The notes under the pieces are model-generated. The model was given only the letters and a program-made list of their open reading frames with translations, did not search any database and was not told the DNA's origin. Positions 1,570 through 29,286 of a stretch of DNA of 64,000 nucleotides are shown here, in pieces. The DNA is from a virus (taxonomy: Duplodnaviria > Caudoviricetes). Numbering within the stretch: the stretch's first letter is position 1; every line of letters starts with the position of its first letter. The position numbers and the translations under genes were made by a program. The DNA lies in the IMG/VR virus record IMGVR_UViG_3300032280_000320, positions 50,332-114,331 of that record; one strand, 5' to 3'.

Positions 1570-3833
1570 ACCCAGGCCACCCTCTTTTGTATCCAGCCTC
1601 CAGATTCTATTACATCCATTGGAGTGGCTTTATGGTCTGCTGCTGCTGTTCCAAGTGCGCCACGTGTTTTAACACGATATCTTCCTGTTGGCTTAAAGTA
1701 TGCTGTTCCTAAAATGTTATTGATATCAACAAACCCTGGCTTTGACAGGGATACATATTTGTTTACATCGTTTTGTGATGCTATCCAAACAATATTTTCA
1801 TCATCATTAAAGTCAATAAATTGATACTCTAATGCATCAAATTCAATTACCTCTGAGTCAATAAGGAAGTATCCACTGAATGCAAATCCACTTTGATATT
1901 GGCTATAAGAATCTCCAACAGTATTATTATTTATTACCAATACGGTATTATCTGCTGGCGTGTCCTTTGATATGTCTAGCTTTAGTCCGCCTGCGCTTAA
2001 AAATGTTGTTGGTGCTTGGGCAAGCTTTGTCGCATCTCCAGTATATTGTGTTGGCACAATTGAATTCCATATAACCTTTACGTTATTTCCAGAAGCAATT
2101 TCTTCCTGGCTTAAAGAAATAATGTTTGGCAAAACTGATCCTTCTGGCTTTTCGTAAAAATTCCATACAGGCGTTGTTTGTGAATATATCTTGTCTCTTG
2201 TATAAAACTGCAAAACATTGTTCTGATCAAAAAATGCATTCATCTGTATGTCTCTGCATAGATCTTGAAGGTGTTCCCAAACTGTTTTTGAATCTGTAGT
2301 CCACCAATATCCTATTGTAGGGATTGAAGTATCTTTAATTATTATAGCACCTTTTGCGGATGTTTCTGTTACCATGTTTATATTATAGTTTGTAAATCCA
2401 ACTGAGTCTAGGAGTCTTCTAATTATTGCAGTTGCTGAATATGTCTCGCAAAGCATGTCTGGTGCAATTGATTCCATTAAATACTTTGCGCCATCTAGCG
2501 CAACTATGTCTGTCTCGCCAAAATTATTGATTGTCCAGCTATCCATATAATAAGATCCCTGTGGAATTTTATATTCTGTTGCGCCATCATATATTTTAAA
2601 GTGTGGTCTTAGTTCTGCATTTTTAAATGTGTATAAGAAATCAAAATCAGAAGGGCCACCTACAATACTTGTCCATGGCTTTTCTCTGTTATATGATCTA
2701 ATCATAACTTGGCTTTGGTTGTAGTTTGCCAGAGACAGAGAAAGTACGTTTGCCGAAAGCTTTCCTACTGGTAAGATATCACTCGAAGATGAGTTTGATG
2801 ATTCTTGTGACAAGCTAACTGCTGAGACTAGTGGGCTTATTTCCTTTACCCATCTTGCAGAAATTTCTATTAACCCCATAACACTTGTTCCGCCAGGATT
2901 TTTTGCAGTTAATGCAATTGATTTTATATACTTTGGGGCTCTGTAAATATTGTCAGTAAAATGAATCCAGTTTGTATCTGCTTCAGTGGGATATAAGGAT
3001 ACTTCTCCTGATGGGAAATTTGTGCTGAAGTTAGGCATTGTTCCTGACTTTACTGTTCCATCTTTATAGGTTATGCTAACTGTAACTTCGGATGGTAGTG
3101 CATGATTCTTATCAAATCTAATTAATATCTTATTTGCAATTGCTGCTTTTGTTTCTGGTATGGTGGCTACTCCAGCAGATGTTAGATAGCCAATCTTACC
3201 TATGTTCTTTTCTATAATAAATGAAGTACTTGATGGCACCTCTATAATTTTGCCGTTTGTGTTATATGCTGTGTCTGACATGCCAGTTATTGTTATTGTA
3301 TTGCCAGTTACAAATCCATGTGGCACCGTGGTTGTATATTTAACCTTATATCGTGTACCAGTATTTGATGCCTCCGCCTTTACAATAGGAACTGTAGTCT
3401 GTGAATACTTAATTGTTATTGTTGAGTCTTTGCCTTCTGGTGACAACCAATACTTGTAAAATGTTGAGGGGCCTGGGTAGTAAACTCTAGGTGTAGATAG
3501 ATTATAGTATATAGCTTTTGGATCCTTGTATATAAAATTAGTTCCATCCGTTGGTATAACAAAATACTTAACCCCAGAATTTAATGGGCGGAATGGCTTG
3601 ATGATAGAATCTACTGGGAAAAGCTTTTTATAGGGGTTAATTGATCCTTGCTTAAATCCATTTATGCCAGCAGTATATTCTGCATCTGTGTTTGAAGAAT
3701 AGACTGATATGTTATCTATCATTGTATTCATATTGTATTCTACTTCACAGCCAACTGATATATTGATTGATGATCTATTTTTTAATATTCCTGTTACGGC
3801 ATCTGTTTGTGCCTGTGTTGCAAGAGAAATCAT
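1566..3833 (-). CDS. Minor tail / baseplate hub-like protein (755 aa)
   Basis: Second gene after the TMP. Motifs QGSYYMDSW, DGAKYL and WEHLQDLCRDIQMNAFFDQNNVLQF resemble tail hub proteins; includes a TTTVPHGFVTGNTITITG beta-domain insert. Confidence 0.65.
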   Translation of the reverse strand: MISLATQAQTDAVTGILKNRSSINISVGCEVEYNMNTMIDNISVYSSNTDAEYTAGINGFKQGSINPYKKLFPVDSIIKPFRPLNSGVKYFVIPTDGTNFIYKDPKAIYYNLSTPRVYYPGPSTFYKYWLSPEGKDSTITIKYSQTTVPIVKAEASNTGTRYKVKYTTTVPHGFVTGNTITITGMSDTAYNTNGKIIEVPSSTSFIIEKNIGKIGYLTSAGVATIPETKAAIANKILIRFDKNHALPSEVTVSITYKDGTVKSGTMPNFSTNFPSGEVSLYPTEADTNWIHFTDNIYRAPKYIKSIALTAKNPGGTSVMGLIEISARWVKEISPLVSAVSLSQESSNSSSSDILPVGKLSANVLSLSLANYNQSQVMIRSYNREKPWTSIVGGPSDFDFLYTFKNAELRPHFKIYDGATEYKIPQGSYYMDSWTINNFGETDIVALDGAKYLMESIAPDMLCETYSATAIIRRLLDSVGFTNYNINMVTETSAKGAIIIKDTSIPTIGYWWTTDSKTVWEHLQDLCRDIQMNAFFDQNNVLQFYTRDKIYSQTTPVWNFYEKPEGSVLPNIISLSQEEIASGNNVKVIWNSIVPTQYTGDATKLAQAPTTFLSAGGLKLDISKDTPADNTVLVINNNTVGDSYSQYQSGFAFSGYFLIDSEVIEFDALEYQFIDFNDDENIVWIASQNDVNKYVSLSKPGFVDINNILGTAYFKPTGRYRVKTRGALGTAAADHKATPMDVIESGGWIQKRVAWV

Positions 3834-4309
3834 TATACTTCCTCCAGCGTCATTGATATTGTCCAGAAAGAATGTAATCCACGCTTTTGTAAGACTGCGG
3901 AAAATTCTGTAAACGAGACTGTATATACTTCTCCTGTTAAAGCTGTGTCTTCTGCGGCACCAGACTTTGCAAAATTTAATAGTATTCTAAATGTGCCCTT
4001 GCCTTCTTCGCTTGCATAAAATCTTCTTAGGTCTTCTGCACCAAGGTTTCCGTCTGCCGTATGTGTTCTTGTTGTGGGTAGCATATTCCAAGACATGCTA
4101 AATGTTTTTTTGTCAGCAATAAAAAATTTTCTAAGGGTTCCGTTAGCCATTCTTTGAGTTTGTTGGATTCTATTTGAGCCTACAGTTATTTCTGATCTAT
4201 TGTGATCAGATATTTTTAGCCAAGTTAAAGTGGTGCCTGGGACAGTAGCAAGAACATCCTTGCCTTCTATTTGTAACCCTACACCTTTAGGTAATTTTGT
4301 ATAACCCAT
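3833..4309 (-). CDS. Distal tail (Dit)-like protein
   Basis: 158 aa immediately after the TMP; RMANGTLRKFFIADKKTFSMSW motif and a C-terminal MTLEEV typical of such tail proteins. Confidence 0.6.
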   Translation of the reverse strand: MGYTKLPKGVGLQIEGKDVLATVPGTTLTWLKISDHNRSEITVGSNRIQQTQRMANGTLRKFFIADKKTFSMSWNMLPTTRTHTADGNLGAEDLRRFYASEEGKGTFRILLNFAKSGAAEDTALTGEVYTVSFTEFSAVLQKRGLHSFWTISMTLEEV

Positions 4310-7300
4310 TATGCTTTAACCTCCAATCCACTTCCTAGTGATCTACTTTCTCCCATAGATTTAACTGATATCTTGCTCATTGTCTTTATAGACTCAACTG
4401 TTTTTCTTGTAACCATGTCAGACAGTGCATTTATGTCACCATCATATCCATTAATATTATTTGTAATATTATATACGCCTCCACCCATTGTAGCATTATT
4501 AGCGTTTGGATTAAAGGGGTTCATATTAGCAGGAACTACTGCTTCATTCTTATGAAGCATGGCAAGCATGTTTGCTGGGACGTTATTTATACCAGTTTCA
4601 AATCTAGGGATATTGAATTTGCCTCCACTTAAGTATCCCCCAGTTGCACCAGTAATTCTTTTACTTTGAAGACCCGCAATTTGGGCAAGCTTTGCATCCA
4701 TTTCTGTACCAGATATAAATCCTCTAGCATATTGATTTATAATAAACTCCTGCATTGCTTTAAGGTCACTTGGATTTGGGTAAGTCTTTCCGCTTTCATA
4801 TTTACCAAAACGTGTCCACATTAAAAGTGCATCTAAAGCTTTTGTTGCTGTGGTGGTTCCAGTATTGGGAGTACCTACTGAAGTTTTATATTCATTTAAA
4901 AGATATGTAAACGGATTGCTTCCAGATCCTTTTGCCAGCATATCTAAGTCACCACTGTTATGGCCTCCATCAAATCTTACTCCAAGCTTAGAGGCTACTT
5001 CTTGAATTACATCTTGATTTAAAGAATGATGCTCACCGCCGACAGCGTATAAGTATGGCTGATCTATTCCAATTTGTTTTTTTGCTTTATCTATTGCTAT
5101 TATCTGTAGGGCTCTTTGGGCACTCATAGGAGTATCAACCTCATAAGAACTTCTTGCTGGCATGTAGAGATCTTGATTGCCAAACACTCTTTCATGATTT
5201 GGCCTAGCCCTCATAGCGTCGTCTACTTGTGCGGCAGGTCTTAAATTACTATTTTCGTTAATTTCTTTTAATATTTGATCAAGCTCTGACTGGGAATATT
5301 TTTCTTTTGCTAAGTAAAATATTTCTTTTGTTGAAGGGTTTTCTGCCATTATTGGCAGCGGGTCTCCTTGTTTATATAACCCAAGCTCTGTTAATCTTTT
5401 AATATAGGCTGATTCTTCTAAAGGAAATACTGAACTGAGCTGCCCTTCTTTTTTACTATACTTAAATGGTTTCCCAAATTTTTGTAAGAAAAAGCTGTCG
5501 ATTGAATGAAGCTGTTCTGGCTTACCGTTATATTTCATTAAATTAGAAAGTGTACTTACTATAAACGGCTTGTCTGGCTTCCAAGATCCCTGAAAATGAG
5601 ATTGAACTGCATCATAAATTCCAAAGTGCCTTGATGTTCTAGCAACAGCATAATCAGCAGCTTTATCAGTTCCAGCAACAGAGCCTTTGGGTCCTACAAA
5701 CCTATCAAATATTTTAAATCCTGCAGCAGTTTCTAGAAGGTCTCCGCTGGCATCTGCTGTTGGGAACTCTTCATTAAACACTCTTATCATTGGAATATCG
5801 TCTGGTGTTGGTGGAGCATAGGGGTCCATTCCTCTTGCTCTGTAAGCTGCAATCTCTGCTCTAGTTAGAGGAACTTCTCCACGGAATCCATGGAAACCTC
5901 CCTTTACTCCACCAGCACGTTCTGTGGCTGCTGCAATTAATGCGGCTTGCTCTTTGGCATTCTCTGCATATTCTTTTGCTGATCTGGCAAGTATCGGTGA
6001 CATTGCTTTTGTTTTAGTTCTAATAGCAATATCGTCTTTTGCGCTACCAAGAGTTGCAGAAATCAATTGAGTAAGTCCTGCTGAATCTAGAGAGGTTGCA
6101 AGCTCTGGCATTCTTAGATCTTGGCCCAGCATGCTGATAGGGAGTAGGTCTGTATCTATTTTCCTTAAATTTATGCTTCCTGCCGCTAGCATGTTCATTA
6201 AAAATTCTCTTACCTGTTTGTCATCCCACTTGTTATTATTCATCTTGTCTAACAAAATTTGAGCTTTTTTATTTTTTGGATCTTTTTTCAAAATATAAGA
6301 AAGTATTCCTTCGGGTGTTGTTGGTATAATATCAGAAACCTGATGATTTGTTAATAGGGAGCCAAGGTTTTCATTTGTGCCTTGGAAAACAACGGCATCG
6401 TTACCAAAAGGCCCTCCTGAATGTAATGGTACTTTATTTCCTTCATGAACTACAAATGGCGGATAATTATTATTTGGTTTCATCTGCTCTGCAGTTGCAG
6501 TTATTTTTGGTTTTTGAATTACTGAAGCTACTCTATTTTCAACAAATGGCCTTGCTGCACCGATTACTGCAGCAGTTGCTGCATTTGTTGCAATCTTTGA
6601 TCCAGATGCTCCAAGGAATGGTATCGAACCCTTTGGCAATAAGTGGCCAAGGTTTGGAATTCCTTTTGCTGCGCCAAATCCCTCAACTATAGATCTCATA
6701 AGTGCATTTCCGTTTGCCCCGCCAACCCTAGCTAAGGCAACATTTATTGCTGCGGTTAGGTATTCTCCTTTAGCCCAATCCCTGCCATCTTGGTAACGCT
6801 GAGCTCCTCCTGCTCCGACAAGGGCGGTGAGTAGAATATTTTGCATTTCGGTATGTATCGGACCACCAGGATTATTTCCCCCAATGGCTGCTGTCCAGTT
6901 TTTACTTGTTGTAAATGTTTCCCATAGAGATGGAGGGTTTTTTACCCATTCACCATTTTCATTTTTATAATAGTTGCCATCCTTCTCATAAAATTTGTCG
7001 GTTGCTTTAGAGTTTGCTGCAGCTCTTGCTGGACTTAATGCACTCATGCTTGGACCTGAATAAGGTGCTTTGTAACTGCTTGCCATATGCCCTGGACTCA
7101 AATGCTTATGTCCTACTAGTCCGCCTTTATGGAAACCTAGCCCAGATTTAATTTTCTTAAATAGCTTACTCCAATTAACAACTGAATGCATGGATCCACC
7201 AGATACCATTGTTCCCTGATTGCCAACAATTTCTCCGCCGCCAACCAGCATGCCTCTACTCCAAGAGTATTCATGGTTTTCAGGAATATAATCTGGATAA

Positions 7301-10300
7301 ATTGTTTTATATTTATCTGGTAGGAACAGCTCCGCTCTTCTATTTTTAGCTTTGTTTTCAGAAGTTGTATTTGGAACAAGAGGTCTATATTCGCCATATC
7401 CTACTGGAGTGAATGCTGTGCCAGGAACAAACTTTGACATATATTCTGCAATAGCATTTGCTCTATTTTGTGAAAGGATCTTGTTGTCTTTTTCTTTACC
7501 TACAGAGTCTGTGTGTCCTTGAACAACTATTGATGCTAGCTTATGCTTAATAAGATCTTTAGCAATTTTTTGAAGCTCTAGTCTTTGCTCTTTATTTAAT
7601 GTGTAAGAATTTGTATCAAAATTAGCTGTGATAGGCGGAACTTCAATTTTAACAACCTGCTTATTGGCATCTTGCCATGCTTCTATTGGGCCCATTAGTT
7701 TTCCGCCTTGTTCGACTCCCTCAGTTGTCGATCCATGCCTATGTCCTACAGGCCCGCCTTTATGTAGCCTTTGAGCATTTAATTTATCAAAAAAATTAAC
7801 TCCATATTGCTTTACAGCTTTTTCTTTAATTACATATTCACCATTTGAAAGCATGGCTGGAATAGAATCAGATGTTCCAGTTCCTGGACCAGATACTTTT
7901 CCTCCTGGCTCAAAATACTTTACCTTACCGCCCTTATTATATGAAACTACTTTTTTATCCCAAGGATTGCTAGCGTAATTTTCGCTTGCCCATCTACCAA
8001 TTATTTTTCCATTTTTATCGGTTACTCTACCATCTGCTGTGTAGGTATATCCAGTTTTTGGATCAATATAATCTTTAAATTTATTACGACCATCTTCTTC
8101 TCTGATAGTAGTTCCACGTTTAGTTGGATCTGGGTGCTTAAATGATTTATACTGGGCTCCTCCTGGAGTATCCTCTGCAGGTTTAGGCATAAAGAATCTT
8201 TCACTTTCTTTATAAACTTTACCAGATGAATCTATGTACTGTCCAGTTTTCTTATCAAAAGTTAATTTTATTGGTGCTCCCTTTGCATTAGCAAAGGCAT
8301 TAGCTTCTCCTACTTCTGGTAATCCTAGTAGCTTTTTGACATACATTCCAAATGAATCTACGTGTTCTCCAAAGCCATCAAAATATTTTTCTGCATATTC
8401 TACAGCTGAGTTACTTGCTCCACCAGGATCATTAGTTATCTTTTTTAGATATGTGAGCCAATCAGCTGAACCAGGCTGCTGGAAACTTAATCCCTTTGGA
8501 CCAGTAACTGTTTTTCCTGCTGTTATTGGAACACCAGCTGTAACTGTTTTTGCTGCAGCCGCACCTTCTGAATTTATTGCAGCTAACGCTGCTACGTCTG
8601 ATTGTAGTGCTTTTGCCAAGGTGCCTAGAACACCCTCATCTGTTGTCATTCCAGCTTTTGATATAGTAGTTGCAATACTTTGCTGTAGGGCCTGTATTGA
8701 TGCATATTCTTTTTGCTTAATGTTAGCAATTTCTTGTAGCTTGTTTGCTTTCTCTTGAAGCTTAATAAGTCTCTCTTGAACTGCAGCTTTTGCTTCTTCA
8801 AGCTTTTTAACTTCTGCATCTCTTTTATCTTGGATTGCATCTATTGATAATGTTTTTTGTCTTTCGTTTGTTAGACTTTGTATATTAAGCTGTGACTGCG
8901 CTGCACGTGACATATCTCCAGCTAACAATGCTTGCTGGTAATTTAGTTGCTCTTTTTGTACCTCTGTTAAATAATCTTGCTTTTCTGCTTGATCTTCAAT
9001 AGCACGTATTCTTGCATCTGCTTCTTCGTTGATTTTTTCTATCTTTTTGTCGAGAGCCTTTATCTCTGCATCTGCATTCTTTTGAGCATTCTTTGTTGCA
9101 TCGTCTGAGGCTTTCTTTGCTTTATCGTATGCAAGTTTTGCTGCTGTTCCATAATCTGCAATTGCATCAATTGGGTTATTTAATAAGTTAGCATTTGTAG
9201 TCATTTCAGATGCAGCTTGTGAAATTGCTGTCACTACCTGTAGCAAATCTTGTGCTTCTTGTCCGCTTAACCCTGATAGATTAGCAGTTACGCCATTTGT
9301 ATAAAGCTGTATTTTTGCCCATGCATCAACCATACTGTCATTTGAATTAAGTATATCTTTGTATAAAGGATTTTCTTTTACAAGAAGATTTAATATGTCA
9401 TCGCCAATATCTTTTTGATTATTCTTATTTGCATTCATTTGCTCTATTGTGTCATTTAGAGCTTCTGTCTGTGTCTTTGCTTTTCCAGTCTCATCTTTTA
9501 TTCCAACTAGGCTTTGGTAGTATAGCTGTATTGCATCTAGCCCGCCGCTAAATGAGGCTGCTATTTCTTTTTTGTCTACGTCTGCGCCTTCAATTGATTT
9601 AACAAATGTCTCTATTGCTACTCTTGCTGCGGATGCTCTGTCTACTACTCTTAAAAATTCTGATGAGGATACAGCTGCCGTTGCCTGAGCAGCTTTATTT
9701 GAAACAGATATAATGCTGTAAATTTCTTTTGCAGCTTCTTGTGCTGATTTTCCTGCTGCAACTAGCTGAACCTTGAGTGCTGTTGCTGCTTTTGTAACGT
9801 CATTTTCATCAAGGTTATTAAACATCTGTACGATGTCACCTTGTGTTTCTTTAGCTTTCTTTTGTAGAGCATTAAGTTCTTTTACAGACATATTGATTCC
9901 GCCGCCTATAGCGGTAGATCCAGCAGCCTTAATCTTTGCTAACTCTCCCTGTGCCTTTGCAGCTTCTGTTGCTTTTTTAATTTTGTCTGTCAGGCTTGTG
10001 TATGTTATGCCAAGTTGTTTTGCTTGTATTTCATTTACATCTAATGCTTCTTGAGAAGCAAGTCTTGCTTTTCTTGCATTCTCCCATGCTCCATAAGAGA
10101 CTGTTGCAAGTGTTGTTAATGCAAATATTGCAACCTTACCCCAACCAGGAATTGCTTTGCCAGCAGCATTAAGCTTTCCTAAAGTTTGACCAAACTTGCC
10201 AACGTTTCTTTCTGCTGCAACAGCTGCCGTTGCTTCTCCTACAGCACCTCCTGCTTTGGCGGCTTTAGCAGTTTTTATACCTTTGTAAATTGATCCAGCA

Positions 10301-13300
10301 GTCATTACTGCAAATATTCCATTTAGAATAAGGTTTGATTTTTCGCTGGCGATTCCCAACTTCTCTAAAGCTTTTGGCAATAGCATAAATGCAGCTAGTG
10401 GTAAAGCTTGCTGTGCAACAACACCTGCAACTGGACCTAGTGCTCCATAATTATATTTTCCACTTTTAATCATTCCTCCCAATGCATGGTTAGGAACAAT
10501 ACCTCCACTGTTCATAGGAACAAATAGTTCTGGTCCCTTTTCTCCAACTATGTAAGGTGTGCCACCAGATACAGGTCCGCCTTTTTCTCTAGCCTCTAAG
10601 CCAAATATTAATTTCTTTAACTCTTCTGTTAATGGAGTATCTTTTCTTGATTCCCAGTTTGTATATCTTCTTTTAAGTATATCTCTGTCTATTGCAGACA
10701 ATACCTTTCTTCCTTCTGGTGCGGAAATTGTAGAAGATGCAGCTGATCTAATAACTGAGTCCATAATATCTGGCTCTAGTGCTTTTAGTAATTGTCCTTG
10801 TGCATTTTTAGAATAGCCATAAGGCATTTCTTTTGCAAGTGCTTCTGCAAACTTGTCATAAAGAATTCTTTGTGCTCTCTTTGTTAATCCGCTAGAAGCA
10901 AATAGCTTTTCTGCCATTCCTATTTCTAGTGATGTTACTCCCCATCCGCCAGTTGTATTCTTTCCAAATCCCGCTCCAATTCTACGCATAGCAAGAGATT
11001 TAATAACATTGATTAATCCACCACCATTAAATCCATTAGCATCAGATTTAAATTCCATATCACTTAAGCTTACAGCGTGGCCCTTTTGTCTTGCTCTTAA
11101 TGCTGCAGCTTCTTCTAATTTAGCAAGTGCTGCTGGCGTCAATGATTTTGGAGCACTTGGCTTAACTGCTGCATGTATGCCGTGAAGTTCTTTCCAGTTT
11201 ACATGCCTTGCATCTTCAAGCCTTCTTATCATTGCAGCATAAACTTCTTCTTCTCTTGGAGTTAGACCTTTAAAGCCAGCAATTGTTTCTTTTAGTCTAG
11301 GAAGGACCTCATCAATTTCATTAAGCATTGATTGCTGATATTGCTGAGGAGTCATTCCTCTTGGAATGTCTACTGTTGATTCTGCAAAGAATCTTTTTGC
11401 TCCGCCCTTTACGCCAAGTAAATTAATTCTTGCTTGTTCTCCAACTGATGGCATATCGTCTGCGTATGATCTCAGACCAGAAGCTGTTTTAAATACACCC
11501 ATAGTTCCGCCATCTGCAACAAAACTTCCACCAATGTTACCAGGTGATAAATCTTTGTCTCCTCTTAATGCTGATGCGAGTAGCTGTTGGAAGTACTCTT
11601 GCTCTGACATTTCTTTTGGCAAGCTTGCAAATCTTGGGTCATAAGGTGATTCAAGAACAAGGAGTTTTCTTTTGCCTGCTGGATCTGTTGGGTCTATCAT
11701 TACCCTTATTTCCTGCTGAGGTGTTGTTAATCTATGTGCTCCTTGGTGTATTGCATTATATCTTTGCTCAGCAAGTGCAGCAGTTTCATCAAGGACTGGC
11801 TTAACAAATACTCTTGTTCCGTCTGGCTTTGTGTATACTCCGCCCACTCCTTCGACTGGGAAGCTGTGACCTTTTGTATCTTCTTCTTTCTTTCCAAAGT
11901 TAGTTGGTTCTTCTTTTGCAAAACGACTCTTGTTTACTGCTTCTGTCGTCTGCTCCATAACCTCTCTACGTTTTCTTTGCTCTTGAACCTGCTTAATTGA
12001 TTTAGGCATTCCAAGAAACAGTCTGCCGTAGTTTCTTTTCTTCTTTAAAATAGGTCCGCCCATTGCAAATTCTTCAAATTCATCAAGCTGCATATGGGCA
12101 AAAGCTCCACGCTCACCATTAACTGTCATTCCTTTAGGATTGTATGATTCATAAGAACCCATGAAGTCTGTTCCGAATTCATCATTCTTTGCAATTAATT
12201 CATCTACGCTTGTTGTGCCATAAGGATTTATTCCTGTGGCAGCTTTAAATCCAGATTTAGTATCTCCTGGTTTACGGAATGCTCTTCTTTGTCCAGGTAT
12301 ACCTAAAGACCTAATATATTTCTTTCTTAAACCTAATCTCTTTGCTATCTCTAGATATACATCGTGTTGTGCTTTTGCAAATAATTTTTCTCCAATTAAT
12401 GTATCACCATGTGCTTGGAAGTTCCCTACAATTTTATCTCTTGCTTCTAAAACTAATGAGTCTGCCATATCGTCATCTATTTTATTTACCTTTAAGAATC
12501 TTCTTAGTGCTGGTAGCGCTTCTGAAGGAGGGAGTGACATTATGTCATCTATTATTTCTTGTGGCTTGGCTGTACTACTATTTATTTTTGAGTTTGTTGT
12601 TTTTCTAGTATTGAGTCCCCAGTTACCAACAAAGAAATATCCAAATGGATTTTTAAGTGTGCGTTTTACTGGTGCTGCTGCTCCTAGTGTTTCATCAACA
12701 AATTTTTGAGCATTAGATCCAGAAGTTGCAACTCTCTTACCCATCTTCATTATTGGAGACAAAAGATCTTCTGCTGCATCTGTAACAGCCTTTGGCAACT
12801 TAACTCTTCCATAATTGTGCTTACCAGAAACAATTGGTCCACCTAAAATTCCGCCTGCATTTCTAAATTGAATTCTTTGTCCGTTATTTGCCGCCTCTAA
12901 TATAGGCAACATCTCTTGTGTTTGTTCTGGTGTAAATACTGTCTCATATGGAGTCAGCATTGCATCAATCATTCCGCCACGATTATATGGCTTAGTCTTT
13001 TTTGCATATTCAACTAGCTGTGGATTATTTCTTGTTGCATCTTGATTTAATACAAAACCACCAACTGGTATTTTTGCCATTGTATTGTCATAGTTTACAC
13101 TCTTGTCACCAGGTACAACTGGGCCATCTTCTAATGTGTATACATATCCACCATCATTAAACCCTCTAGATGGACCTCTTTTTGGAAGAATAATTCTTGG
13201 CTTAGTGGTTTCTATACTATAGCCTCCGCCTGACGTTCTAACTCCTAAGCCTCTTGCAACATCATCAACAAGTGCTGCGGTTTCTGGCTTATGGAACATT

Positions 13301-15906
13301 TCTTTCATGTTTGATTTACCAGTTACTGGATCAACTACTGGCTGGCTAGTAAATGGTACTGTTGTTAAATTAATACTTCTTCCCATACCTGCTGCAACTT
13401 GTGCCGCAGTCTCTGCCATCATTATTTCAATTGTTGCATTAAGTGAAATTATTCTTGCTCTAGCTTGCTCTACAGTTATTACACCTTGCTGTAGCTGTCT
13501 TACAATCATTGCTCCTTCATCAGCCGCCAATGAAGTAAGTTGTTGCATTTGTGGAAGCATCTGTTGATAAACTGAGGATAACTCATGTGTTACTGTTCCA
13601 GTTGCTGCTACTTCCGTTTTTAATAATGTAAGTTCTGCTTGAGACTGGGTTGCAATAGCTGCTGTCATTGCATGCCATTTAGCTGCTTCTGTTGCGACTA
13701 TACCAGTTGACACTCCGCTAATAGATGTAACTCCAGGAATTCTTGGTAAATCCTCATTCATATACATCTGTGGGTTATTGCTTACTCTAACATTTACTGG
13801 ACCTGGGTTTGGAACAACACCAAATATTGTTCCTGGTTGTTCTATTGCTGTAGGAATAGTGTGTGCAAACTGTCTGCTAAATGGGGCACCTATAAACCTG
13901 CTATCTTTATCTGCCATTCTGTCTGCATTTGCTGCAGCTCCTGCTGGAGATAGGATTGTTGATCCGCCCATTGTACTTATGCTTGAGCTTGTTGCAACTG
14001 CTGAATTTAATGCACTTGCCTTTAATCTATCAAATGATGCAGCAAGATTATTAACTGCTGTTTCTAATGCTATTGCAGCCTGTGCATCACTAAAGAAAGA
14101 TTTTTCTACAACCTTACCAGCTTCTGCAGCTGCCATCATTTCTGGTGTTAATAATTTAAATCCTGATCCACCCTTAAATAATTGCTTTAGATGGAATACG
14201 CCCTTGATAATATATCCAAGGAAGTTTCCAAGAACACCAGTAAGCATGATAAGTGGTCCTGCAAATGCTGTTAATCCACCAAGGAATGTTAACAGTGACT
14301 TAATTGGCCCTGGTAGATTTTCTACAAACTTAATAATTCCGCTGATTGTTTTTAATACAAATGTGCTTATCTTTAAGAACTGATCACCAACACCTGCAAG
14401 TTCTGCCTTAATTGTTTCAAGTGCTCTTTTATATTGTCCAGATGCAGACTCTGTCATAGCCTTTAATTCTCGGTCTGCAATTCCTGCTAGCTCTTCAGTG
14501 CTTGCCTTCATCAAATCTAATACTTGTAAAGTCTGTGACCCTTCTTTACCAAGGTTATTAAATAGAGCTCCCATACGAGCAAACTGGAACTTTCCAAAAA
14601 GCTGTTCAATTGCCTGAGCCTTTTGTAGTGGATCTAGCTTATCTAGTGATGCTTGAAGTGCTAATATTGTTGCAGTTATATCTCCAGCATTATTCTTTAC
14701 AATTGATCCAAGATCAATTCCAAATCCCATAAACATTTCTCTTGCAACTTTAGTTGGGTTAATAAGTGATGCGAGAGATGACTTAATAGCGTTAGCACCT
14801 TCTGATGCATTTACTCCGCCTTCTTTCATTGCAGTTAAATAAAGAGCAAGATCTTGAACGTCTCCGCCAAGTGATTGGATTACTGGTCCTGCTTTTGGAA
14901 TTGCTTCAACCAAATCTGCAAGCGATGTTGATGTCTGGTTTTCAACTGCGTTTAGGAAGTTAATTGATCCTGCTAGCTCTTCGTTGCTTTGCTTAAATGC
15001 ATTTTGAATAGCAAGTGTTGCTTTCATTGCATCTTGTCTATCTACTTCACCAAGAATAGAAAGTCTTGTTGTTTCTTGTGTTGATACAAGAAGATCATTT
15101 CCTTGCTTACCAGTTGCTGCAATATCCGCTGCTAATGCGATTGTTTCTTTATATGATGCACCGTAGATAGATGCTAATTCTTTCGCTGTCTCTTCGACAT
15201 CTTTTCTAACTTGCTTTAGCTCTGCAGAAGATGTTTCTGCTAGACCGCCATAAACCTTTGTTAATCTAACTAGCTGTTGGTCTGCTTCTAAGAATGCTTT
15301 TTGTGCTGCTGCACCAAATGCCATCATTGGGACTGTTAGTCCAACTGTTAGCTGACGTCCTGCCCACTGTGTATTTTTACCCCAGTTAATAAGCTGGTTA
15401 GATCCATCAAGCATTACCTTGTTAAGAATTGATGCTTCTTGTCTTAATAAAGCAGTTCTATTCTTTAAAACATCTAGTCCATTTGCTACGTGGACATTGT
15501 ATTGCATTTGCCCCTGGGCATTTCTTCCCAGGGGTTGCATTACGGCTTGTTCCATTAATACTTGCTGCTTAGCAAGATCTTTAATTAATGTGCTTGTTTT
15601 TCTTGTGTGTCCTTGCCAGACTCCGAAGTACTCGCCAAGTTTCATTCGGCCAGTATCTAGCCTCTTTCCAAACTTCTGTACATCAGATTCAAGTGTTACA
15701 AAGTGTGAAGAAAACTGTCCAGTTGCTCGCATTGTGTCGGCAAATGAACGATTCATTCGGCCTACTTCATTTGATAGATTTCTATCTAATCCAATGGTTG
15801 TGGCTTGTAGTTTAATTAACTCGGCGGTTACGGCTCTTAACTGCGCTGTTAAACTTGTAAAGTTTGCCGTCGCAGTTATGTTCGTATTAATATTTTGTTC
15901 AGCCAA
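4309..15906 (-). CDS. Giant tape measure protein (3,865 aa) with embedded cargo domains (kinase-like, OmpA-like)
   Basis: Follows the tail chaperones. TP901-type TMP core (GRQLTVGLTVP...AVENQTSTSLADLVEAIPKAGPV...EGANAIKS), long Ala/Lys/Glu helical tracts, and TMP-type motifs GGPVSGGTPYIVGEKGPELFVP and GPGTGTSDSIPAMLSNGEYV. Confidence 0.9.
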   Translation of the reverse strand: MAEQNINTNITATANFTSLTAQLRAVTAELIKLQATTIGLDRNLSNEVGRMNRSFADTMRATGQFSSHFVTLESDVQKFGKRLDTGRMKLGEYFGVWQGHTRKTSTLIKDLAKQQVLMEQAVMQPLGRNAQGQMQYNVHVANGLDVLKNRTALLRQEASILNKVMLDGSNQLINWGKNTQWAGRQLTVGLTVPMMAFGAAAQKAFLEADQQLVRLTKVYGGLAETSSAELKQVRKDVEETAKELASIYGASYKETIALAADIAATGKQGNDLLVSTQETTRLSILGEVDRQDAMKATLAIQNAFKQSNEELAGSINFLNAVENQTSTSLADLVEAIPKAGPVIQSLGGDVQDLALYLTAMKEGGVNASEGANAIKSSLASLINPTKVAREMFMGFGIDLGSIVKNNAGDITATILALQASLDKLDPLQKAQAIEQLFGKFQFARMGALFNNLGKEGSQTLQVLDLMKASTEELAGIADRELKAMTESASGQYKRALETIKAELAGVGDQFLKISTFVLKTISGIIKFVENLPGPIKSLLTFLGGLTAFAGPLIMLTGVLGNFLGYIIKGVFHLKQLFKGGSGFKLLTPEMMAAAEAGKVVEKSFFSDAQAAIALETAVNNLAASFDRLKASALNSAVATSSSISTMGGSTILSPAGAAANADRMADKDSRFIGAPFSRQFAHTIPTAIEQPGTIFGVVPNPGPVNVRVSNNPQMYMNEDLPRIPGVTSISGVSTGIVATEAAKWHAMTAAIATQSQAELTLLKTEVAATGTVTHELSSVYQQMLPQMQQLTSLAADEGAMIVRQLQQGVITVEQARARIISLNATIEIMMAETAAQVAAGMGRSINLTTVPFTSQPVVDPVTGKSNMKEMFHKPETAALVDDVARGLGVRTSGGGYSIETTKPRIILPKRGPSRGFNDGGYVYTLEDGPVVPGDKSVNYDNTMAKIPVGGFVLNQDATRNNPQLVEYAKKTKPYNRGGMIDAMLTPYETVFTPEQTQEMLPILEAANNGQRIQFRNAGGILGGPIVSGKHNYGRVKLPKAVTDAAEDLLSPIMKMGKRVATSGSNAQKFVDETLGAAAPVKRTLKNPFGYFFVGNWGLNTRKTTNSKINSSTAKPQEIIDDIMSLPPSEALPALRRFLKVNKIDDDMADSLVLEARDKIVGNFQAHGDTLIGEKLFAKAQHDVYLEIAKRLGLRKKYIRSLGIPGQRRAFRKPGDTKSGFKAATGINPYGTTSVDELIAKNDEFGTDFMGSYESYNPKGMTVNGERGAFAHMQLDEFEEFAMGGPILKKKRNYGRLFLGMPKSIKQVQEQRKRREVMEQTTEAVNKSRFAKEEPTNFGKKEEDTKGHSFPVEGVGGVYTKPDGTRVFVKPVLDETAALAEQRYNAIHQGAHRLTTPQQEIRVMIDPTDPAGKRKLLVLESPYDPRFASLPKEMSEQEYFQQLLASALRGDKDLSPGNIGGSFVADGGTMGVFKTASGLRSYADDMPSVGEQARINLLGVKGGAKRFFAESTVDIPRGMTPQQYQQSMLNEIDEVLPRLKETIAGFKGLTPREEEVYAAMIRRLEDARHVNWKELHGIHAAVKPSAPKSLTPAALAKLEEAAALRARQKGHAVSLSDMEFKSDANGFNGGGLINVIKSLAMRRIGAGFGKNTTGGWGVTSLEIGMAEKLFASSGLTKRAQRILYDKFAEALAKEMPYGYSKNAQGQLLKALEPDIMDSVIRSAASSTISAPEGRKVLSAIDRDILKRRYTNWESRKDTPLTEELKKLIFGLEAREKGGPVSGGTPYIVGEKGPELFVPMNSGGIVPNHALGGMIKSGKYNYGALGPVAGVVAQQALPLAAFMLLPKALEKLGIASEKSNLILNGIFAVMTAGSIYKGIKTAKAAKAGGAVGEATAAVAAERNVGKFGQTLGKLNAAGKAIPGWGKVAIFALTTLATVSYGAWENARKARLASQEALDVNEIQAKQLGITYTSLTDKIKKATEAAKAQGELAKIKAAGSTAIGGGINMSVKELNALQKKAKETQGDIVQMFNNLDENDVTKAATALKVQLVAAGKSAQEAAKEIYSIISVSNKAAQATAAVSSSEFLRVVDRASAARVAIETFVKSIEGADVDKKEIAASFSGGLDAIQLYYQSLVGIKDETGKAKTQTEALNDTIEQMNANKNNQKDIGDDILNLLVKENPLYKDILNSNDSMVDAWAKIQLYTNGVTANLSGLSGQEAQDLLQVVTAISQAASEMTTNANLLNNPIDAIADYGTAAKLAYDKAKKASDDATKNAQKNADAEIKALDKKIEKINEEADARIRAIEDQAEKQDYLTEVQKEQLNYQQALLAGDMSRAAQSQLNIQSLTNERQKTLSIDAIQDKRDAEVKKLEEAKAAVQERLIKLQEKANKLQEIANIKQKEYASIQALQQSIATTISKAGMTTDEGVLGTLAKALQSDVAALAAINSEGAAAAKTVTAGVPITAGKTVTGPKGLSFQQPGSADWLTYLKKITNDPGGASNSAVEYAEKYFDGFGEHVDSFGMYVKKLLGLPEVGEANAFANAKGAPIKLTFDKKTGQYIDSSGKVYKESERFFMPKPAEDTPGGAQYKSFKHPDPTKRGTTIREEDGRNKFKDYIDPKTGYTYTADGRVTDKNGKIIGRWASENYASNPWDKKVVSYNKGGKVKYFEPGGKVSGPGTGTSDSIPAMLSNGEYVIKEKAVKQYGVNFFDKLNAQRLHKGGPVGHRHGSTTEGVEQGGKLMGPIEAWQDANKQVVKIEVPPITANFDTNSYTLNKEQRLELQKIAKDLIKHKLASIVVQGHTDSVGKEKDNKILSQNRANAIAEYMSKFVPGTAFTPVGYGEYRPLVPNTTSENKAKNRRAELFLPDKYKTIYPDYIPENHEYSWSRGMLVGGGEIVGNQGTMVSGGSMHSVVNWSKLFKKIKSGLGFHKGGLVGHKHLSPGHMASSYKAPYSGPSMSALSPARAAANSKATDKFYEKDGNYYKNENGEWVKNPPSLWETFTTSKNWTAAIGGNNPGGPIHTEMQNILLTALVGAGGAQRYQDGRDWAKGEYLTAAINVALARVGGANGNALMRSIVEGFGAAKGIPNLGHLLPKGSIPFLGASGSKIATNAATAAVIGAARPFVENRVASVIQKPKITATAEQMKPNNNYPPFVVHEGNKVPLHSGGPFGNDAVVFQGTNENLGSLLTNHQVSDIIPTTPEGILSYILKKDPKNKKAQILLDKMNNNKWDDKQVREFLMNMLAAGSINLRKIDTDLLPISMLGQDLRMPELATSLDSAGLTQLISATLGSAKDDIAIRTKTKAMSPILARSAKEYAENAKEQAALIAAATERAGGVKGGFHGFRGEVPLTRAEIAAYRARGMDPYAPPTPDDIPMIRVFNEEFPTADASGDLLETAAGFKIFDRFVGPKGSVAGTDKAADYAVARTSRHFGIYDAVQSHFQGSWKPDKPFIVSTLSNLMKYNGKPEQLHSIDSFFLQKFGKPFKYSKKEGQLSSVFPLEESAYIKRLTELGLYKQGDPLPIMAENPSTKEIFYLAKEKYSQSELDQILKEINENSNLRPAAQVDDAMRARPNHERVFGNQDLYMPARSSYEVDTPMSAQRALQIIAIDKAKKQIGIDQPYLYAVGGEHHSLNQDVIQEVASKLGVRFDGGHNSGDLDMLAKGSGSNPFTYLLNEYKTSVGTPNTGTTTATKALDALLMWTRFGKYESGKTYPNPSDLKAMQEFIINQYARGFISGTEMDAKLAQIAGLQSKRITGATGGYLSGGKFNIPRFETGINNVPANMLAMLHKNEAVVPANMNPFNPNANNATMGGGVYNITNNINGYDGDINALSDMVTRKTVESIKTMSKISVKSMGESRSLGSGLEVKA

Positions 15907-18780: not shown

Positions 18781-19198
18781 TTTGTTGATTCTCCGACCTT
18801 GATAATGTAGTGTTATATCCAACAACATTTCCAAAAGGATCAGTAATTGGAGTTGATCCAACAACCTCAAAAACCGTTGGGGTCTCTGTTGGGAAATCTA
18901 TTTCTGTCCAGATTGATTTGTTTTTTGCATCACGAATATTAGTAGCCTTTTCTCTATAGGTTATTCTTTCTGATGTTCTGACCTGGATCATTTGCTGGTT
19001 TGTGTATTTGTTTCCAAATACCTGCCTGTCATTCGTGCTACTTGATGAAGAGTTGCTAATGATTCCTTTTGCGTGGCAATCTAATGTTTTATAAAAATTC
19101 CAAGATTTTAATATTGCCCCAGTGTTTGGGTCTTGTGAATCAGACTGTCTATATAGATCCAATCTCATTACCAATATTGAGTCTATAAGGTCTAACAT
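18770..19198 (-). CDS. Head closure (stopper) protein
   Basis: 142 aa following the adaptor; QDPNTGAILKSW and PITDPFGNVVGY segments fit a beta-rich stopper. Confidence 0.6.
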   Translation of the reverse strand: MLDLIDSILVMRLDLYRQSDSQDPNTGAILKSWNFYKTLDCHAKGIISNSSSSSTNDRQVFGNKYTNQQMIQVRTSERITYREKATNIRDAKNKSIWTEIDFPTETPTVFEVVGSTPITDPFGNVVGYNTTLSRSENQQIGI

Positions 19199-20184
19199 TA
19201 TATAACAACCATGCTGCTTATGACATATGGGTAGAGTAGCTGGTCTGCGTATGCATTACCAGTTCCTCTGTAAGCATCTGATGCATATTCAAACTGCCAA
19301 TCAAATGTTTTAATATTCTTTAGGTACTTATTTGTCCAAACTCTATCCTTAGAGAAATAGTCTCCTATTAATTGGATAGCTGCCTGCTCAACATTGTCTG
19401 GTACTTCCGCCCAGCCAAATTTTCCTTGAATACGATACTTAACATCTTTCTGGAAAGCTCCGTGGTATGTGTCATTAATTGATGGCGGAATTAATCCATT
19501 TGCACTGTATGTTATGTTGTCAAGAGTATTAGTTCTATCTATTCTTAATCCAAAGCCTGTCTCAGAAATTATTGGATTGAATACCCAATTTGTTTCTTCA
19601 TTTATATTGTCTATAAGCTTTATATCATTTCCATATAACTCATGCAATGCATTAATTTTAAATGGCAGTGGCAAAACATCAGAACCTGATCCGTATATAG
19701 ATTCAGTGCTATCGTACAAATAGAATCTTTGTCCTGTATAGCTTTCAATTACTTTACGGGCAAATTTTTCTGCCATAACTAATTCATGATAGCTTTTATA
19801 CATTGGGTCGGATGGATCTGTTCCAAGACCAAGATCTTCAATAACTTCAGCAAGAGAAGCATATGGAGTTACAACATTCACAAATGTTTCATGCTGTATG
19901 CTAGTTGAATTCATCTGGTACTTCCAGACAAGCTTTAAGCTCTTGTCTCTGTTGGTTATTGAATATGGAATATTAATTTGATATGATCCATAATCAACCT
20001 CAGATTTTGACGCCAATATGTTTGTAAGTATTGGTGTTGCTGGGTTAACAGATGGTAATATTCCTGGGTCTTCAGTTATGTCATATATGTCTACACGTAC
20101 ATCACTTTCGGCATCAACAATAGCGCCACCCCAAAAAATTTTAGTAGACGCTGGTGCGTTGCTGTTTTTATATACTTCTGCCAT
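19198..20184 (-). CDS. Head-to-tail adaptor
   Basis: YASLAEV...ARKVIESYTGQRF...GWAEVPDNVEQAAIQL...TGNAYADQLLYPY is a gp15/gp6-like adaptor signature. Confidence 0.75.
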   Translation of the reverse strand: MAEVYKNSNAPASTKIFWGGAIVDAESDVRVDIYDITEDPGILPSVNPATPILTNILASKSEVDYGSYQINIPYSITNRDKSLKLVWKYQMNSTSIQHETFVNVVTPYASLAEVIEDLGLGTDPSDPMYKSYHELVMAEKFARKVIESYTGQRFYLYDSTESIYGSGSDVLPLPFKINALHELYGNDIKLIDNINEETNWVFNPIISETGFGLRIDRTNTLDNITYSANGLIPPSINDTYHGAFQKDVKYRIQGKFGWAEVPDNVEQAAIQLIGDYFSKDRVWTNKYLKNIKTFDWQFEYASDAYRGTGNAYADQLLYPYVISSMVVI

Positions 20185-20698: not shown

Positions 20699-21769
20699 TT
20701 AAGAAGCAACCTTTACGTTCTTTACAACGACCCAAGCATCTGCTTGTTCGATTTGAACGCCAACGCGAGTATACATTGTGTACTCAATTGAGTCCTTACG
20801 TGGCCAGAAGAAGCGGTAAACTGTAACGTCACGCTTGATACCAATAACTACGTTATTTGGGAATGTCAAGTGGATGTCACCGTGTGAACCAGATGCTCCT
20901 GAGTATGAACCTGTCTGAACTTCTGGAAGAAGTGGAACTTCAACGATTGGAATACCAAATGCGTATGGAGCTACATATCCTGCAGGACCAGAAACTGGTG
21001 CAACCTCACCACGGATGATGCCTGAAGCAATATCTTGTGGGTTAACGTTCTGGATGTTCTGTGATGTTGAGTATAAGTAATCCTGGATCAAGTTTGAACC
21101 TGATAGGAAGCGAAGGTCTGTACGACGCTGCTTGTACTTACGTGGAAGAGCCTTAAGTGCTGAGTTGAAAACTGCACGAGAAATTCCCGCACCAGCTGCA
21201 TCAACGACATGACCGTGAGCCTTTGCCTTCTTAACTGCACCGTCAAATGACTTATAAAGTGCATCTGATGATAGTGCTGTATCGCCATTAAGAACTAGGT
21301 CTTCAATGTCGTTACCTGCCTGTGTTGCCATCATTCTGGCAATGTGATCTTCGAGATCAGCACCTTCAATGTTGTCTTCTAGTGACTCAGTTGAAAGCTC
21401 CCAATCTAAACGAAGCTTCTTTGTTGTTAGAGAGATCTTTGAGAATGTCACTGGTGCGTTAACGCCTGTGTTTTCTCCTTCGGTTGCTAGCTTAACAAGC
21501 TTCTCACCGATTGACATGCGGTCAATCTCTGTTGTGTCAGACTTCATTCGGACCGTACGTGCAACCTTACCAATTACGGTAGCGTCGAACATATAATCTA
21601 AAAATCTTGCTGACTGCTCTGGGTTTAGAACACCACCGTTGCCATTTTCTGACGCAACGTGATCTCCTGAACCACCTGTTGCAGATGCGAAAGTACCTCC
21701 GACGGCCTGTGGGCCACCAGCGATTGTTGTACCAGCTGCTGCTGCTTTTTCTAATAATTCATTACTCAT
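20699..21769 (-). CDS. Major capsid protein (HK97 fold)
   Basis: GGVLNPEQSARF...LTTKKLRLDWELSTESLEDNIEG...GNDIEDLVLNGD; follows the protease/scaffold gene. Confidence 0.92.
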   Translation of the reverse strand: MSNELLEKAAAAGTTIAGGPQAVGGTFASATGGSGDHVASENGNGGVLNPEQSARFLDYMFDATVIGKVARTVRMKSDTTEIDRMSIGEKLVKLATEGENTGVNAPVTFSKISLTTKKLRLDWELSTESLEDNIEGADLEDHIARMMATQAGNDIEDLVLNGDTALSSDALYKSFDGAVKKAKAHGHVVDAAGAGISRAVFNSALKALPRKYKQRRTDLRFLSGSNLIQDYLYSTSQNIQNVNPQDIASGIIRGEVAPVSGPAGYVAPYAFGIPIVEVPLLPEVQTGSYSGASGSHGDIHLTFPNNVVIGIKRDVTVYRFFWPRKDSIEYTMYTRVGVQIEQADAWVVVKNVKVAS

Positions 21770-23100: not shown

Positions 23101-23153
23101 ATGCTTAATTTTATAGGTATATATATCAAAAGGCAAATAGTAGTTGAGTAAAG

Positions 23154-27935: not shown

Positions 27936-27956
27936 TTTTTAATTATACCACCTAAA

Positions 27957-28559: not shown

Positions 28560-28560
28560 T

Positions 28561-29277: not shown

Positions 29278-29286
29278 AGTGTCTCC

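Follow-up and report, generated by a model that had tools for sequence, protein, structure and literature searches.

A Short Double-Glycine Unit at the Edges of Exchanged Blocks in a Very Long Phage Tape Measure Protein

Introduction

The 64,000-nt stretch of DNA analysed here (the window) is the final 64 kb of a 114,331-base IMG/VR virus record, which has been rated complete by CheckV, and its minus strand encodes a very long tape measure protein (TMP) in which a short double-glycine (GG) unit recurs behind the conventional core. Exchange of blocks at the GG motifs among related phages is well supported by sequence comparison, and we consider it likely that this TMP is organised as colinear slots bounded by GG units, in which cassettes are exchanged by recombination, the units having a role of their own that is likely structural. 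A sequence-only reading of the window had proposed that the motifs are processing sites and/or recombination joints, turning the TMP into an injected polyprotein with swappable effectors. In an alignment of related TMPs, the inter-motif blocks have indeed been found exchanged as units with their edges placed at the motifs, and for this reason the terms "recombination joints" and "swappable" hold.

The open reading frame (ORF) in question (4309..15906, minus strand) starts with TTG and remains open for 3,865 codons, giving 3,865 amino acids (aa) before the stop. It has been assigned as a TMP of great length because its first ~850 residues match TMP families: ten PHROG TMP families match the N-terminal part, within aa 1-846 (best phrog_10030, E 4.8e-123), and the Pfam domain PF10145 (PhageMin_Tail) is found at aa 239-438 (E 9.2e-25, 88.1 bits versus a cut-off of 33.2), which places the protein among the TP901/PhageMin_Tail type TMPs. 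The conventional core, aa 1-900 (13207..15906; all coordinates of TMP parts refer to the window and its minus strand), comprises PF10145 and a first hydrophobic segment at aa 537-571 as judged by hydropathy. All 13 motif strings that had been read from the sequence alone are present, about 12 nt or less from the places given for them; they start at aa 916 (FNDGG), 974 (YNRGG), 1015 (RNAGG), 1280 (FAMGG), 1626 (FNGGG), 1773 (REKGG), 1807 (HALGG), 2656 (YNKGG), 2665 (FEPGG), 2714 (LHKGG), 2925 (FHKGG), 3161 (LHSGG) and 3754 (ATGG).

Exchange of Blocks Among Related Tape Measure Proteins

Relatives have been collected by a scan of IMG/VR, which returned at least 595 related loci on contigs from environmental metagenomes; the best 79 were kept, 54 of them with a complete TMP ORF (2,163-4,210 aa), so that the family set consists of 55 TMPs including the query. 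The whole TMP gene, used as a DNA query against 50,697 phage records, has given no match. In BLASTP of the query against the 54 complete TMPs, 222 internal alignment ends have been obtained, and 63.5% of these are located no more than 15 aa from one of the 13 motifs, whereas random sets of 13 positions capture 12.8% of the ends within this distance and 0 of 5,000 such sets reach 63.5%. Nine of the 11 break clusters with at least seven ends lie within 14 aa of a motif (RNAGG, FAMGG, FNGGG, REKGG, HALGG with its NYG, YNKGG/FEPGG, LHKGG, FHKGG and ATGG), and a major break cluster is found at 10 of the 13 motifs. When all TMPs were compared with each other, 23.3% of 780 break clusters fell no more than 15 aa from the strict form of the motif (see below), compared with 6.9% of random positions.

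Sharp transitions have been observed at the DNA level for several relatives. L002 is 94.7% identical to the query over aa 1-2533 and 94% identical over aa 2654-2694, then shows no match until aa 3765, from which point the identity is 91%; L003 displays the same pattern. In the protein, the upstream junction reads ...LNAQRLHKGG/PVGHRH... in the query and ...LNAQKLAGGG/AVGLGS... in L002 (the slash marking the junction), and on the downstream side of the L002/L003 exchange similarity is back directly past ATGG, ANGG or AEGG, the junctions being thus placed at LxxGG and AxGG. The DNA of L007 is ~70-83% identical to the query over most of the TMP gene and 96.2% identical from the FHKGG unit at aa 2925 to aa 3834, with a step at FHKGG from 82.6% to 96.2%. 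The ~2.7-kb block concerned (window 4312-7134, minus strand, versus L007:17497-20228) clearly points to a recent transfer between otherwise diverged genomes. Furthermore, L007, L034, L035 and L042 contain an extra cassette of ~375-395 aa between two copies of FH(K/T)GGxVGH(R/K)H. Cutting the 55 TMPs at the units has resulted in 353 pieces, which group into 62 clusters and 41 line-ups with the common pieces always in the same order; the core corresponds to cluster 0 and is kept in 55 of 55 TMPs. The arrangement is one of alternative cassettes in fixed slots and not of free shuffling.

Conservation of the Unit and Its Place in Structure Models

The strict motif [FYH]xxGGx[VILMF] matches nine times in aa 881-3865, whereas 2,000 shuffles average 0.51 matches and never exceed 4. 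None of the 55 family TMPs contains it in the first 880 aa, and elsewhere it occurs 2.3 times per 1,000 aa. Therefore, the motif is considered real and enriched. The plain GG dipeptide occurs 52 times in the TMP, with 32 occurrences expected from composition. REKGG, RNAGG and ATGG fall outside the strict form, yet they are placed at exchange boundaries. LHSGG, a loose fit, is embedded in a domain that is folded with confidence (predicted local distance difference test, pLDDT, of 86-92), no homology break occurs near it, and its listing as a block boundary has had to be given up, as it is internal to the domain termed B11 below.

The consensus of the unit reads (G/K/R)-(F/Y/L)-(N/A)-x-G-G-x-(V/I). 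Among 338 unique unit contexts, F/Y/L occupies position -3 in 85%, N/A position -2 in 58% and V/I position +2 in 87%; proline directly follows GG in 9% of these contexts and at 4 of the 13 sites of this TMP. Units in tandem, 8-11 aa apart, make up 35 of 328 spacings in the family. Two extended classes that had been noticed by eye have been recovered as described, K.NYG behind three motifs (aa 1015-1036, 1280-1296 and 1807-1823) and VGH(R/K)H behind two (aa 2714-2724 and 2925-2935). The HxGGxVGH(R/K)H unit is represented by 17 instances in 15 DNA versions, the pairwise identity of which has a mean of 75% and a minimum of 57%, with mostly synonymous differences. Consequently, selection on the unit probably acts at the protein level.

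In AlphaFold2 models, confident domains alternate with stretches of pLDDT below 50, and it is in the latter that the units sit. For aa 900-1830 (alignment of 109 rows), confident domains have been obtained at aa 920-1014, 1099-1199, 1299-1599 and 1629-1769, and the units lie in the intervening low-confidence stretches at aa 1015-1095, 1202-1301, 1607-1632 and 1771-1830. Models and alignments together show the units as linkers between predicted folded parts and homology as breaking there. The earlier view that globular domains lie between motif pairs agrees with the AlphaFold2 models for aa 1099-1199, 1299-1599, 1629-1769 and 3145-3751 and with Pfam for the OmpA domain; it does not apply to aa 1824-2480, where a hydrophobic segment is followed by an Ala/Lys/Gln/Glu-rich stretch.

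A Widespread C-Terminal Module of Tape Measure Proteins

The GG unit is, as far as sequence comparison can tell, a repeat element of an old and widespread C-terminal module of TMPs, a membership shared with cultured phages that the sequence-only reading had missed. The layout of this module consists of one or several GG units, a hook of ~45 aa (GPGTxTSDSIPAxLSNGEYV...LNA) and another GG unit. The canonical copy of the present TMP, aa 2656-2724 (7735..7941), matches the TMP family phrog_23013 and comprises YNKGG, FEPGG and GPGTGTSDSIPAMLSNGEYVI...LNAQRLHKGGPVGHRH, reading YNKGG-KVKY-FEPGG-KVSGPGTGTSDSIPAMLSNGEYVIKEKAVKQYGVNFFDKLNAQR-LHKGG-PV. When aa 900-3865 were used as the query, 223 phage records were matched (Gordonia 84, Ralstonia 56, Mycobacterium 26, and others), and many of the matches listed are annotated TMPs that align at the canonical hook module. 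Searched against PDB sequences, the hook module has matched only two TMPs: gp16 of mycobacteriophage Douge, with two copies at aa 964-1013 and 1413-1464 (E 7e-20 for the single sequence and 9e-33 for the profile), and gp46 of Pseudomonas phage JBD30 at aa 1019-1065 (E 4e-7 and 3e-12, respectively). Residues 1022-1066 of the JBD30 TMP have been described as a predicted hook composed of two helices and a beta-hairpin, which has been proposed to retain the TMP in the baseplate after departure of the C-terminal domain (PMC11445458).

Across 29 aligned family copies, conservation extends from the leading GG unit through the hook to the trailing (F/Y/L)AxGGx(V/I) and then stops abruptly. In distant relatives, found with the B10-B11 part of the protein, the C-termini are made up of 3-5 tandem units 8-11 aa apart, the hook, and ~50 residues. 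Ordinary TMPs carry the hook module near the C-terminus. The hook-type copies of the present TMP are a degenerate pair at aa 916-1010, the canonical copy at aa 2665-2713 and a degenerate copy at aa ~3768-3800, to which module B (aa 1773-1823) is added; the degenerate copies have been recognised by eye against the family hook consensus. The pair forms two tandem hook-type mini-domains led by FNDGG (aa 916) and YNRGG (aa 974) (12877..13161), modelled by AlphaFold2 at pLDDT 77-88 as strand-strand-helix twice, in which ...MIDAMLTPYETVF... resembles the hook consensus by eye.

Module B (REKGGPVSGGTPYIVGEKGPELFVP...) with its HALGG...GKYNYG unit, aa 1773-1823 (10438..10590), matches phrog_30701 and phrog_1538, the latter being a TMP family that is matched near its C-terminus; cyanophage TMPs match module B at 67% identity, and breaks cluster around it at aa 1764-1773 and 1821-1832. 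Searches of PDB sequences with module B and with the C-terminal 121 aa have returned, besides one weak match of module B to the TMP chain 25vf_5 (E 0.028), only spurious matches. The C-terminal module, aa 3754-3865 (4312..4647), consists of the ATGG unit, a degenerate hook (NNVPANMLAMLHKNEAVVP) and a terminal helix at residues 901-925 of the model of aa 2925-3865; it corresponds to cluster 4, is present in 28 of the 55 TMPs, and is 91-94% identical in DNA to L002/L003 from aa 3761-3765, with a break cluster of 14 ends at aa 3746-3763.

A reading of the hook as a LexA/signal-peptidase-like Ser-Lys peptidase, guessed from SDSIPAMLSNGEYVI, has been rejected: the Ser is replaced by Thr, Ile or Val in distant relatives, and Pfam gives no S24/S26 match. 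Co-folding of three hook-module copies has yielded a score of 0.02 against a mark of 0.42 and has not been used as evidence either way.

Cassettes and Junction Units

Cassette B3, aa 1297-1625 (11032..12018), is present in 30 of 55 TMPs and contains an atypical protein/lipid-kinase fold at aa 1330-1585. The top 30 structure matches found with VIA-align are all kinases and cover model residues 414-685. The best of them, the CotH kinase 5jda (Z 11.7, root-mean-square deviation 3.8 Å, 216 residues aligned), is consistent with a bilobal kinase fold and is followed by PI4KIIalpha (Z 9.8), MavQ (Z 9.5) and Fam20C (Z 8.9), with CtkA and HipA also among the matches; Foldseek alone has given weak results on the B3 model (best E 1.7e-3), and no named Pfam kinase family has matched B3 at E up to 0.05. 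The segments FVKP, AxAE, LRGDKDL..xN and DxG are each at least 95% conserved among 27 unique sequences, and in our reading FVKP, AxAE, GDKDL..xN and DxG represent the putative kinase Lys, Glu, catalytic loop and metal-binding Asp. In BFVD, the nearest viral fold neighbours of the B3-containing model include proteins of phages annotated as "PI3K/PI4K catalytic domain" as well as others of the "large polyvalent protein associated domain" type (E 1e-6 to 1e-3). A second, unrelated cassette with sub-threshold kinase-type matches has been noticed in L034 (aa 2854-3239, ABC1 20.4 bits and APH 18.4 bits), and a cassette of this ABC1/APH type is placed between two FHxGG units in L007, L034, L035 and L042.

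The OmpA-like cassette, aa 2725-2924 (7135..7734; cluster 12, 6 of 55 TMPs), is lacking in L002 and L003, the closest relatives in other respects. It contains PF00691 at aa 2763-2856 with a score above the curated cut-off of the family (E 4.7e-18, 65.8 bits versus 27.2), and the domain lies between LHKGGPVGHRH and FHKGGLVGHKH just as had been read from the sequence. GHTD...LSQNRA and NRRAE are readable in it, which we take to be the peptidoglycan-binding motifs of an OmpA-like domain. The block looks more like an envelope anchor than an effector. The LHKGG and FHKGG units that flank the cassette (7735-7767 and 7102-7134, minus strand) hold three histidines each, HKGGxVGH(R/K)H, and it is conceivable that the histidines of both units form a putative metal site clamping the base of the inserted domain.

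Domain B11, aa 3144-3753 (4648..6477), is a large folded domain that contains LHSGG (aa 3161). In the AlphaFold2 model of aa 2925-3865 (alignment of 47 rows, 941 residues), aa 3145-3751 form a confident domain with many 10-residue blocks of pLDDT above 90. A fold match has not been found within this 941-residue model (best PDB Z 5.8 on a helical hairpin only, Foldseek E above 2), where a search with B11 as a single domain could do better; Pfam has no match to B11, and the ESM Atlas no usable one. For the B10-B11 part, only 63 relatives have been obtained from 1.84 billion representatives; almost without exception they are long proteins, or pieces, that end in the manner of TMPs, and relatives of B11 are almost always located directly ahead of the GG array and hook at TMP C-termini. 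An ADP-ribosyltransferase, guessed for B11 from R...STxS...EE, has been discarded, as OspC3 and CopC come up in Foldseek with nothing better than E 4.1-4.8 and a probability of 0.02. The term "effectors" is only partly apt: it would suit the kinase-fold block with its conserved catalytic-type set, but less so the anchor-like OmpA block and most other blocks, which carry no recognisable function.

The remaining parts can be followed from the core towards the C-terminus. The junction unit RNAGG...SGKHNYG, aa 1015-1036 (12799..12864; pLDDT below 50), coincides with a break cluster of 41 ends at aa 997-1062 and precedes cassette B2, aa 1037-1279 (12070..12798), which is partly helical, reaches pLDDT 69-93 for aa 1099-1199 only, has no Pfam match and belongs to cluster 7 (9 of 55 TMPs), its slot being occupied by unrelated blocks in other TMPs. 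B3 is framed by the units FAMGG...KRNYG, aa 1280-1296 (12019..12069; break cluster aa 1259-1297 with 30 ends), and FNGGGLI, aa 1626-1632 (11011..11031; break cluster aa 1614-1628 with 10 ends), both again with pLDDT below 50. Cassette B4, aa 1633-1772 (10591..11010), is folded at pLDDT ~75-85, has no match in Pfam and forms cluster 2, which is found in 42 of 55 TMPs. Behind module B, aa 1824-2480 (8467..10437; cluster 1, 54 of 55 TMPs) comprise the second hydrophobic segment (aa 1825-1844) and a long Ala/Lys/Gln/Glu-rich stretch, which is presumed to be a coiled coil; Pro and Gly together account for 7.1% of these residues, compared with 13.4% overall. Block B7, aa 2481-2655 (7942..8466), is partly replaced in L002 from aa ~2533, and together with the following hook it shows 30% identity to the TMP of Gordonia phage Sidious. 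The junction unit FHKGGLVGHKH, aa 2925-2935 (7102..7134), at which the identity step of L007 is located, occurs in two copies in L007, L034, L035 and L042, and it is followed by block B10, aa 2936-3143 (6478..7101), which is mostly modelled at low confidence (pLDDT 25-78) and has relatives in TMPs only. Pfam searches with 20 of 49 cassette representatives have given only the sub-threshold ABC1/APH matches in one cassette and three chance-level matches, and a word-index search with aa 1030-1775, aimed at stand-alone relatives, has returned 42 matches, all with the look of TMP fragments of this family.

Explanations for the Double-Glycine Unit

We propose that, behind the TMP core, the protein presents a chain of slots, each bounded by a short GG unit, and that in this lineage unrelated cassettes of 100-800 aa have come to fill the intervals between units of the widespread TMP module. 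Cassettes would be replaced via recombination between co-infecting relatives, for which the conserved hook (124-158 nt, 87-94% identity), the units, and the C-terminal module (306-319 nt, 91-94%) could serve as homology arms, and the joints that survive would be only those in frame and at autonomous linkers. The units themselves probably have a role in the protein, as they are conserved as amino acids while synonymous sites vary, and rather than cargo release by cleavage, this role may be to thread, dock or hold the extended TMP trimer within tube and hub. Given that the native setting of the unit is a cargo-free tandem array beside the hook, a structural role is most likely when compared with cargo-release cleavage.

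Several observations weigh against this explanation. No break cluster is associated with FNDGG or LHSGG, and near YNRGG the ends number only three; conversely, two large break clusters are located away from motifs, at aa 1930-1942 (10 ends) and aa 2401-2480 (36 ends), which is attributed to alignments that fade rather than stop in a 25-30% identical helical stretch. The left edge of the block that differs in L002 lies at aa ~2533 (window ~8308, minus strand), inside B7 and off any GG unit. BLAST extensions may tend to halt in glycine-rich linkers, and many of the relatives are near-duplicates, so that the alignment ends are not independent events and the DNA-level transitions weigh more than the counts of ends. 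As for the structural role proposed here, both published cryo-EM studies (one of them PMC11445458) resolve no more of the TMP than its final 33-42 residues.

As the sequence-only reading had suggested, the GG units could be protease sites at which cleavage, whether in the course of tail assembly or following ejection, would divide a TMP polyprotein into several injected proteins; we regard this as unlikely. Cleavage of a TMP is as such established, since T5 pb2 is cut after R1127, between a hydrophobic stretch and the peptidase domain, with the fragment staying in the tail (PMC10038345). The GG unit resembles a recognition site in its fixed residues at -3, GG and +2 and in the extended classes K.NYG and VGH(R/K)H, and it is situated in predicted disordered linkers. 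Proteases of adenovirus, African swine fever virus and the ubiquitin type cut after GG. However, a search of the 114-kb record for GG-specific proteases has given 0 matches each to Prok-JAB (PF14464), Peptidase_C39 (PF03412) and Peptidase_C48 (PF02902), the sole protease found in the genome being the head maturation protease, and a divergent or host protease could still be involved. Proline, at the frequencies given above, directly follows GG at some of the supposed sites. The closely spaced tandem units of distant TMPs have no cargo between them and are therefore not what a cargo-release site predicts. Moreover, the TM4 tail becomes ~20 nm shorter when its TMP lacks the embedded enzyme motif (PMC1796659), and embedded inserts therefore count in the ruler at assembly. 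Processing of the GG units by a novel protease or by self-cleavage, with the TMP as a tail-borne polyvalent polyprotein and the tail lumen as a second cargo bay, likewise appears doubtful; if true, a kinase, a peptidoglycan anchor and further enzymes would reach the host envelope or cytoplasm before the DNA, and this cargo would be re-dealt at the same sites.

The low pLDDT at the units would also be compatible with mere glycine-rich linkers, in which case edges would be found there because recombinants that break domains are lost, domain borders being viable recombination points in any modular protein. This is very improbable in our view, as conservation of F/Y/L at -3, N/A at -2 and V/I at +2 would not be expected of a generic linker, as unit classes of 11-16 residues are kept across different TMPs, and as the unit is common to actinophage and Pseudomonas phage TMPs. 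Little credit is likewise given to the idea that the units are recombination signals at the DNA level (microhomology), with the amino-acid motif as a by-product. The edges of exchange are sharp in DNA, and the two units flanking OmpA agree at 35 of the 60 nt compared and at 26 of 30 nt in the motif itself, over which their identity is uninterrupted for stretches of 11 and 10 nt. Set against this, the 17 instances of the HxGGxVGH(R/K)H unit differ mostly at synonymous positions in their 15 DNA versions, most units share only GGN GGN, and the hook (124-158 nt) as well as the C-terminal flanks (306-319 nt) would be better substrates.

Genomic Setting

The source is an uncultured siphovirus of ~114 kb, and its host may be a member of the Bacteroidota, as hinted at by one match named after a Chitinophagia genome bin. 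According to the rule of 0.15 nm of tail per TMP residue (PMC1796659), a TMP of 3,865 aa would give a tail of ~580 nm. The TMP ORF belongs to an ordinary siphovirus structural block on the minus strand, with portal (23154-24740), head maturation protease (21787-23136), capsid protein (20699-21769) and head-tail adaptor (19198-20184), then small tail genes and the TMP. Downstream of the TMP follow a 158-aa ORF and a 755-aa ORF, which matches the minor tail protein family phrog_10359 (E 8.5e-45), and the TMP is thus positioned as expected in a tail gene block, upstream of the minor tail protein and downstream of adaptor, capsid, protease and portal.

At 26955-44797 (minus strand), four of the 10 large ORFs scanned match tail-fibre families. 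Two of the tail-fibre ORFs (35769-37802 and 42854-44797, minus strand) share an N-terminal piece of ~50 aa (phrog_697 and phrog_23595 at residues 1-55), as if a common adaptor served alternative fibres as docking site; PHROG gives no match for the ORFs 25138-26952 and 40461-42842. The window also contains a tRNA-Ile (anticodon TAT; 53337-53412, minus strand), a tRNA-Asp (anticodon GTC; 61573-61646, plus strand) and a gene for the ribonucleotide reductase large subunit (47401-49332, minus strand, as the structural genes; phrog_367, E 3.8e-186).

Significance and Comparison with Known Systems

TMPs are usually seen as rulers with at most one cell-wall enzyme, and in this lineage the TMP appears as a platform, the breadth of which is reflected in the 41 domain line-ups of the 55 relatives, in lengths of 2,163-4,210 aa and in a junction unit that also occurs in Douge and JBD30. 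The units provide a testable rule for sites at which TMPs tolerate insertions, useful for the engineering of cargo-carrying tails, and this organisation raises the physical problem of how three chains with foldable domains of 200-600 aa are stored in a narrow tube. The cassettes furthermore constitute a pool of uncharacterised entry-stage proteins that would meet the host before the DNA, among them the kinase-fold domain and a 600-aa domain without fold match.

In TM4 gp17 and T5 pb2, too, the TMP bears additional functional domains, which work on the cell envelope at entry. Motif 3 of TM4 gp17 has peptidoglycan hydrolase activity and is dispensable (PMC1796659), and T5 pb2 has a muralytic metallopeptidase motif (PMC10038345). 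In contrast to the single inserted cell-wall hydrolase in each of these proteins, the present TMP contains six to eight inserted blocks, with at least 62 block types in the 55 relatives, and it carries a kinase fold and an OmpA-like domain as well as a defined unit at the block edges. JBD30 gp46 and Douge gp16 are direct sequence relatives of the canonical module (aa 2665-2714). Douge gp16, with two module copies ~400 aa apart, has the same layout of module, insert and module, whereas JBD30 possesses a single module ~90 aa from the C-terminus, with a predicted structure and a proposed role, as compared with four hook-type copies and module B over 2,900 aa in the TMP described here.

Polyvalent proteins have been described as very large multidomain virion-associated proteins with variable domain sets, for which recombinational variability has been suggested, and they include a family of kinases that occurs chiefly in Bacteroidetes and Verrucomicrobia prophages (Iyer et al., 2017; PMC5512222). 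The likeness consists in the many unrelated domains of one polypeptide, here at least eight distinct blocks for which delivery with the virion would follow from the TMP role. They differ in that polyvalent proteins are packaged in the head (MuF, DarB or N4 RNA polymerase type), and the words "tape measure" occur 0 times in the main text of PMC5512222. Across the whole TMP, none of the polyvalent signature domains (MuF, MPTase, ART, DarB-type helicase and others) has been found by Pfam at E up to 1. In polymorphic toxins such as CdiA (VENN) and Rhs (PxxxxDPxGL), a short conserved motif marks the border between constant and exchangeable parts, and recombination has its edge there. In these systems a single C-terminal toxin varies and is accompanied by an immunity gene, whereas the present TMP offers many internal slots in a virion protein, with no immunity genes seen and no toxin domain identified.

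Among the titles and abstract openings listed in literature searches on TMPs, none describes the junction unit or cassette exchange at it. TMPs with one embedded wall enzyme, as in TM4 and T5, and giant multidomain virion proteins with kinase domains are already known. The novelty resides in the combination of a TMP that carries cassettes in multiple slots, a defined junction unit that cultured phages also possess, and a cassette pool that is almost entirely uncharacterised.

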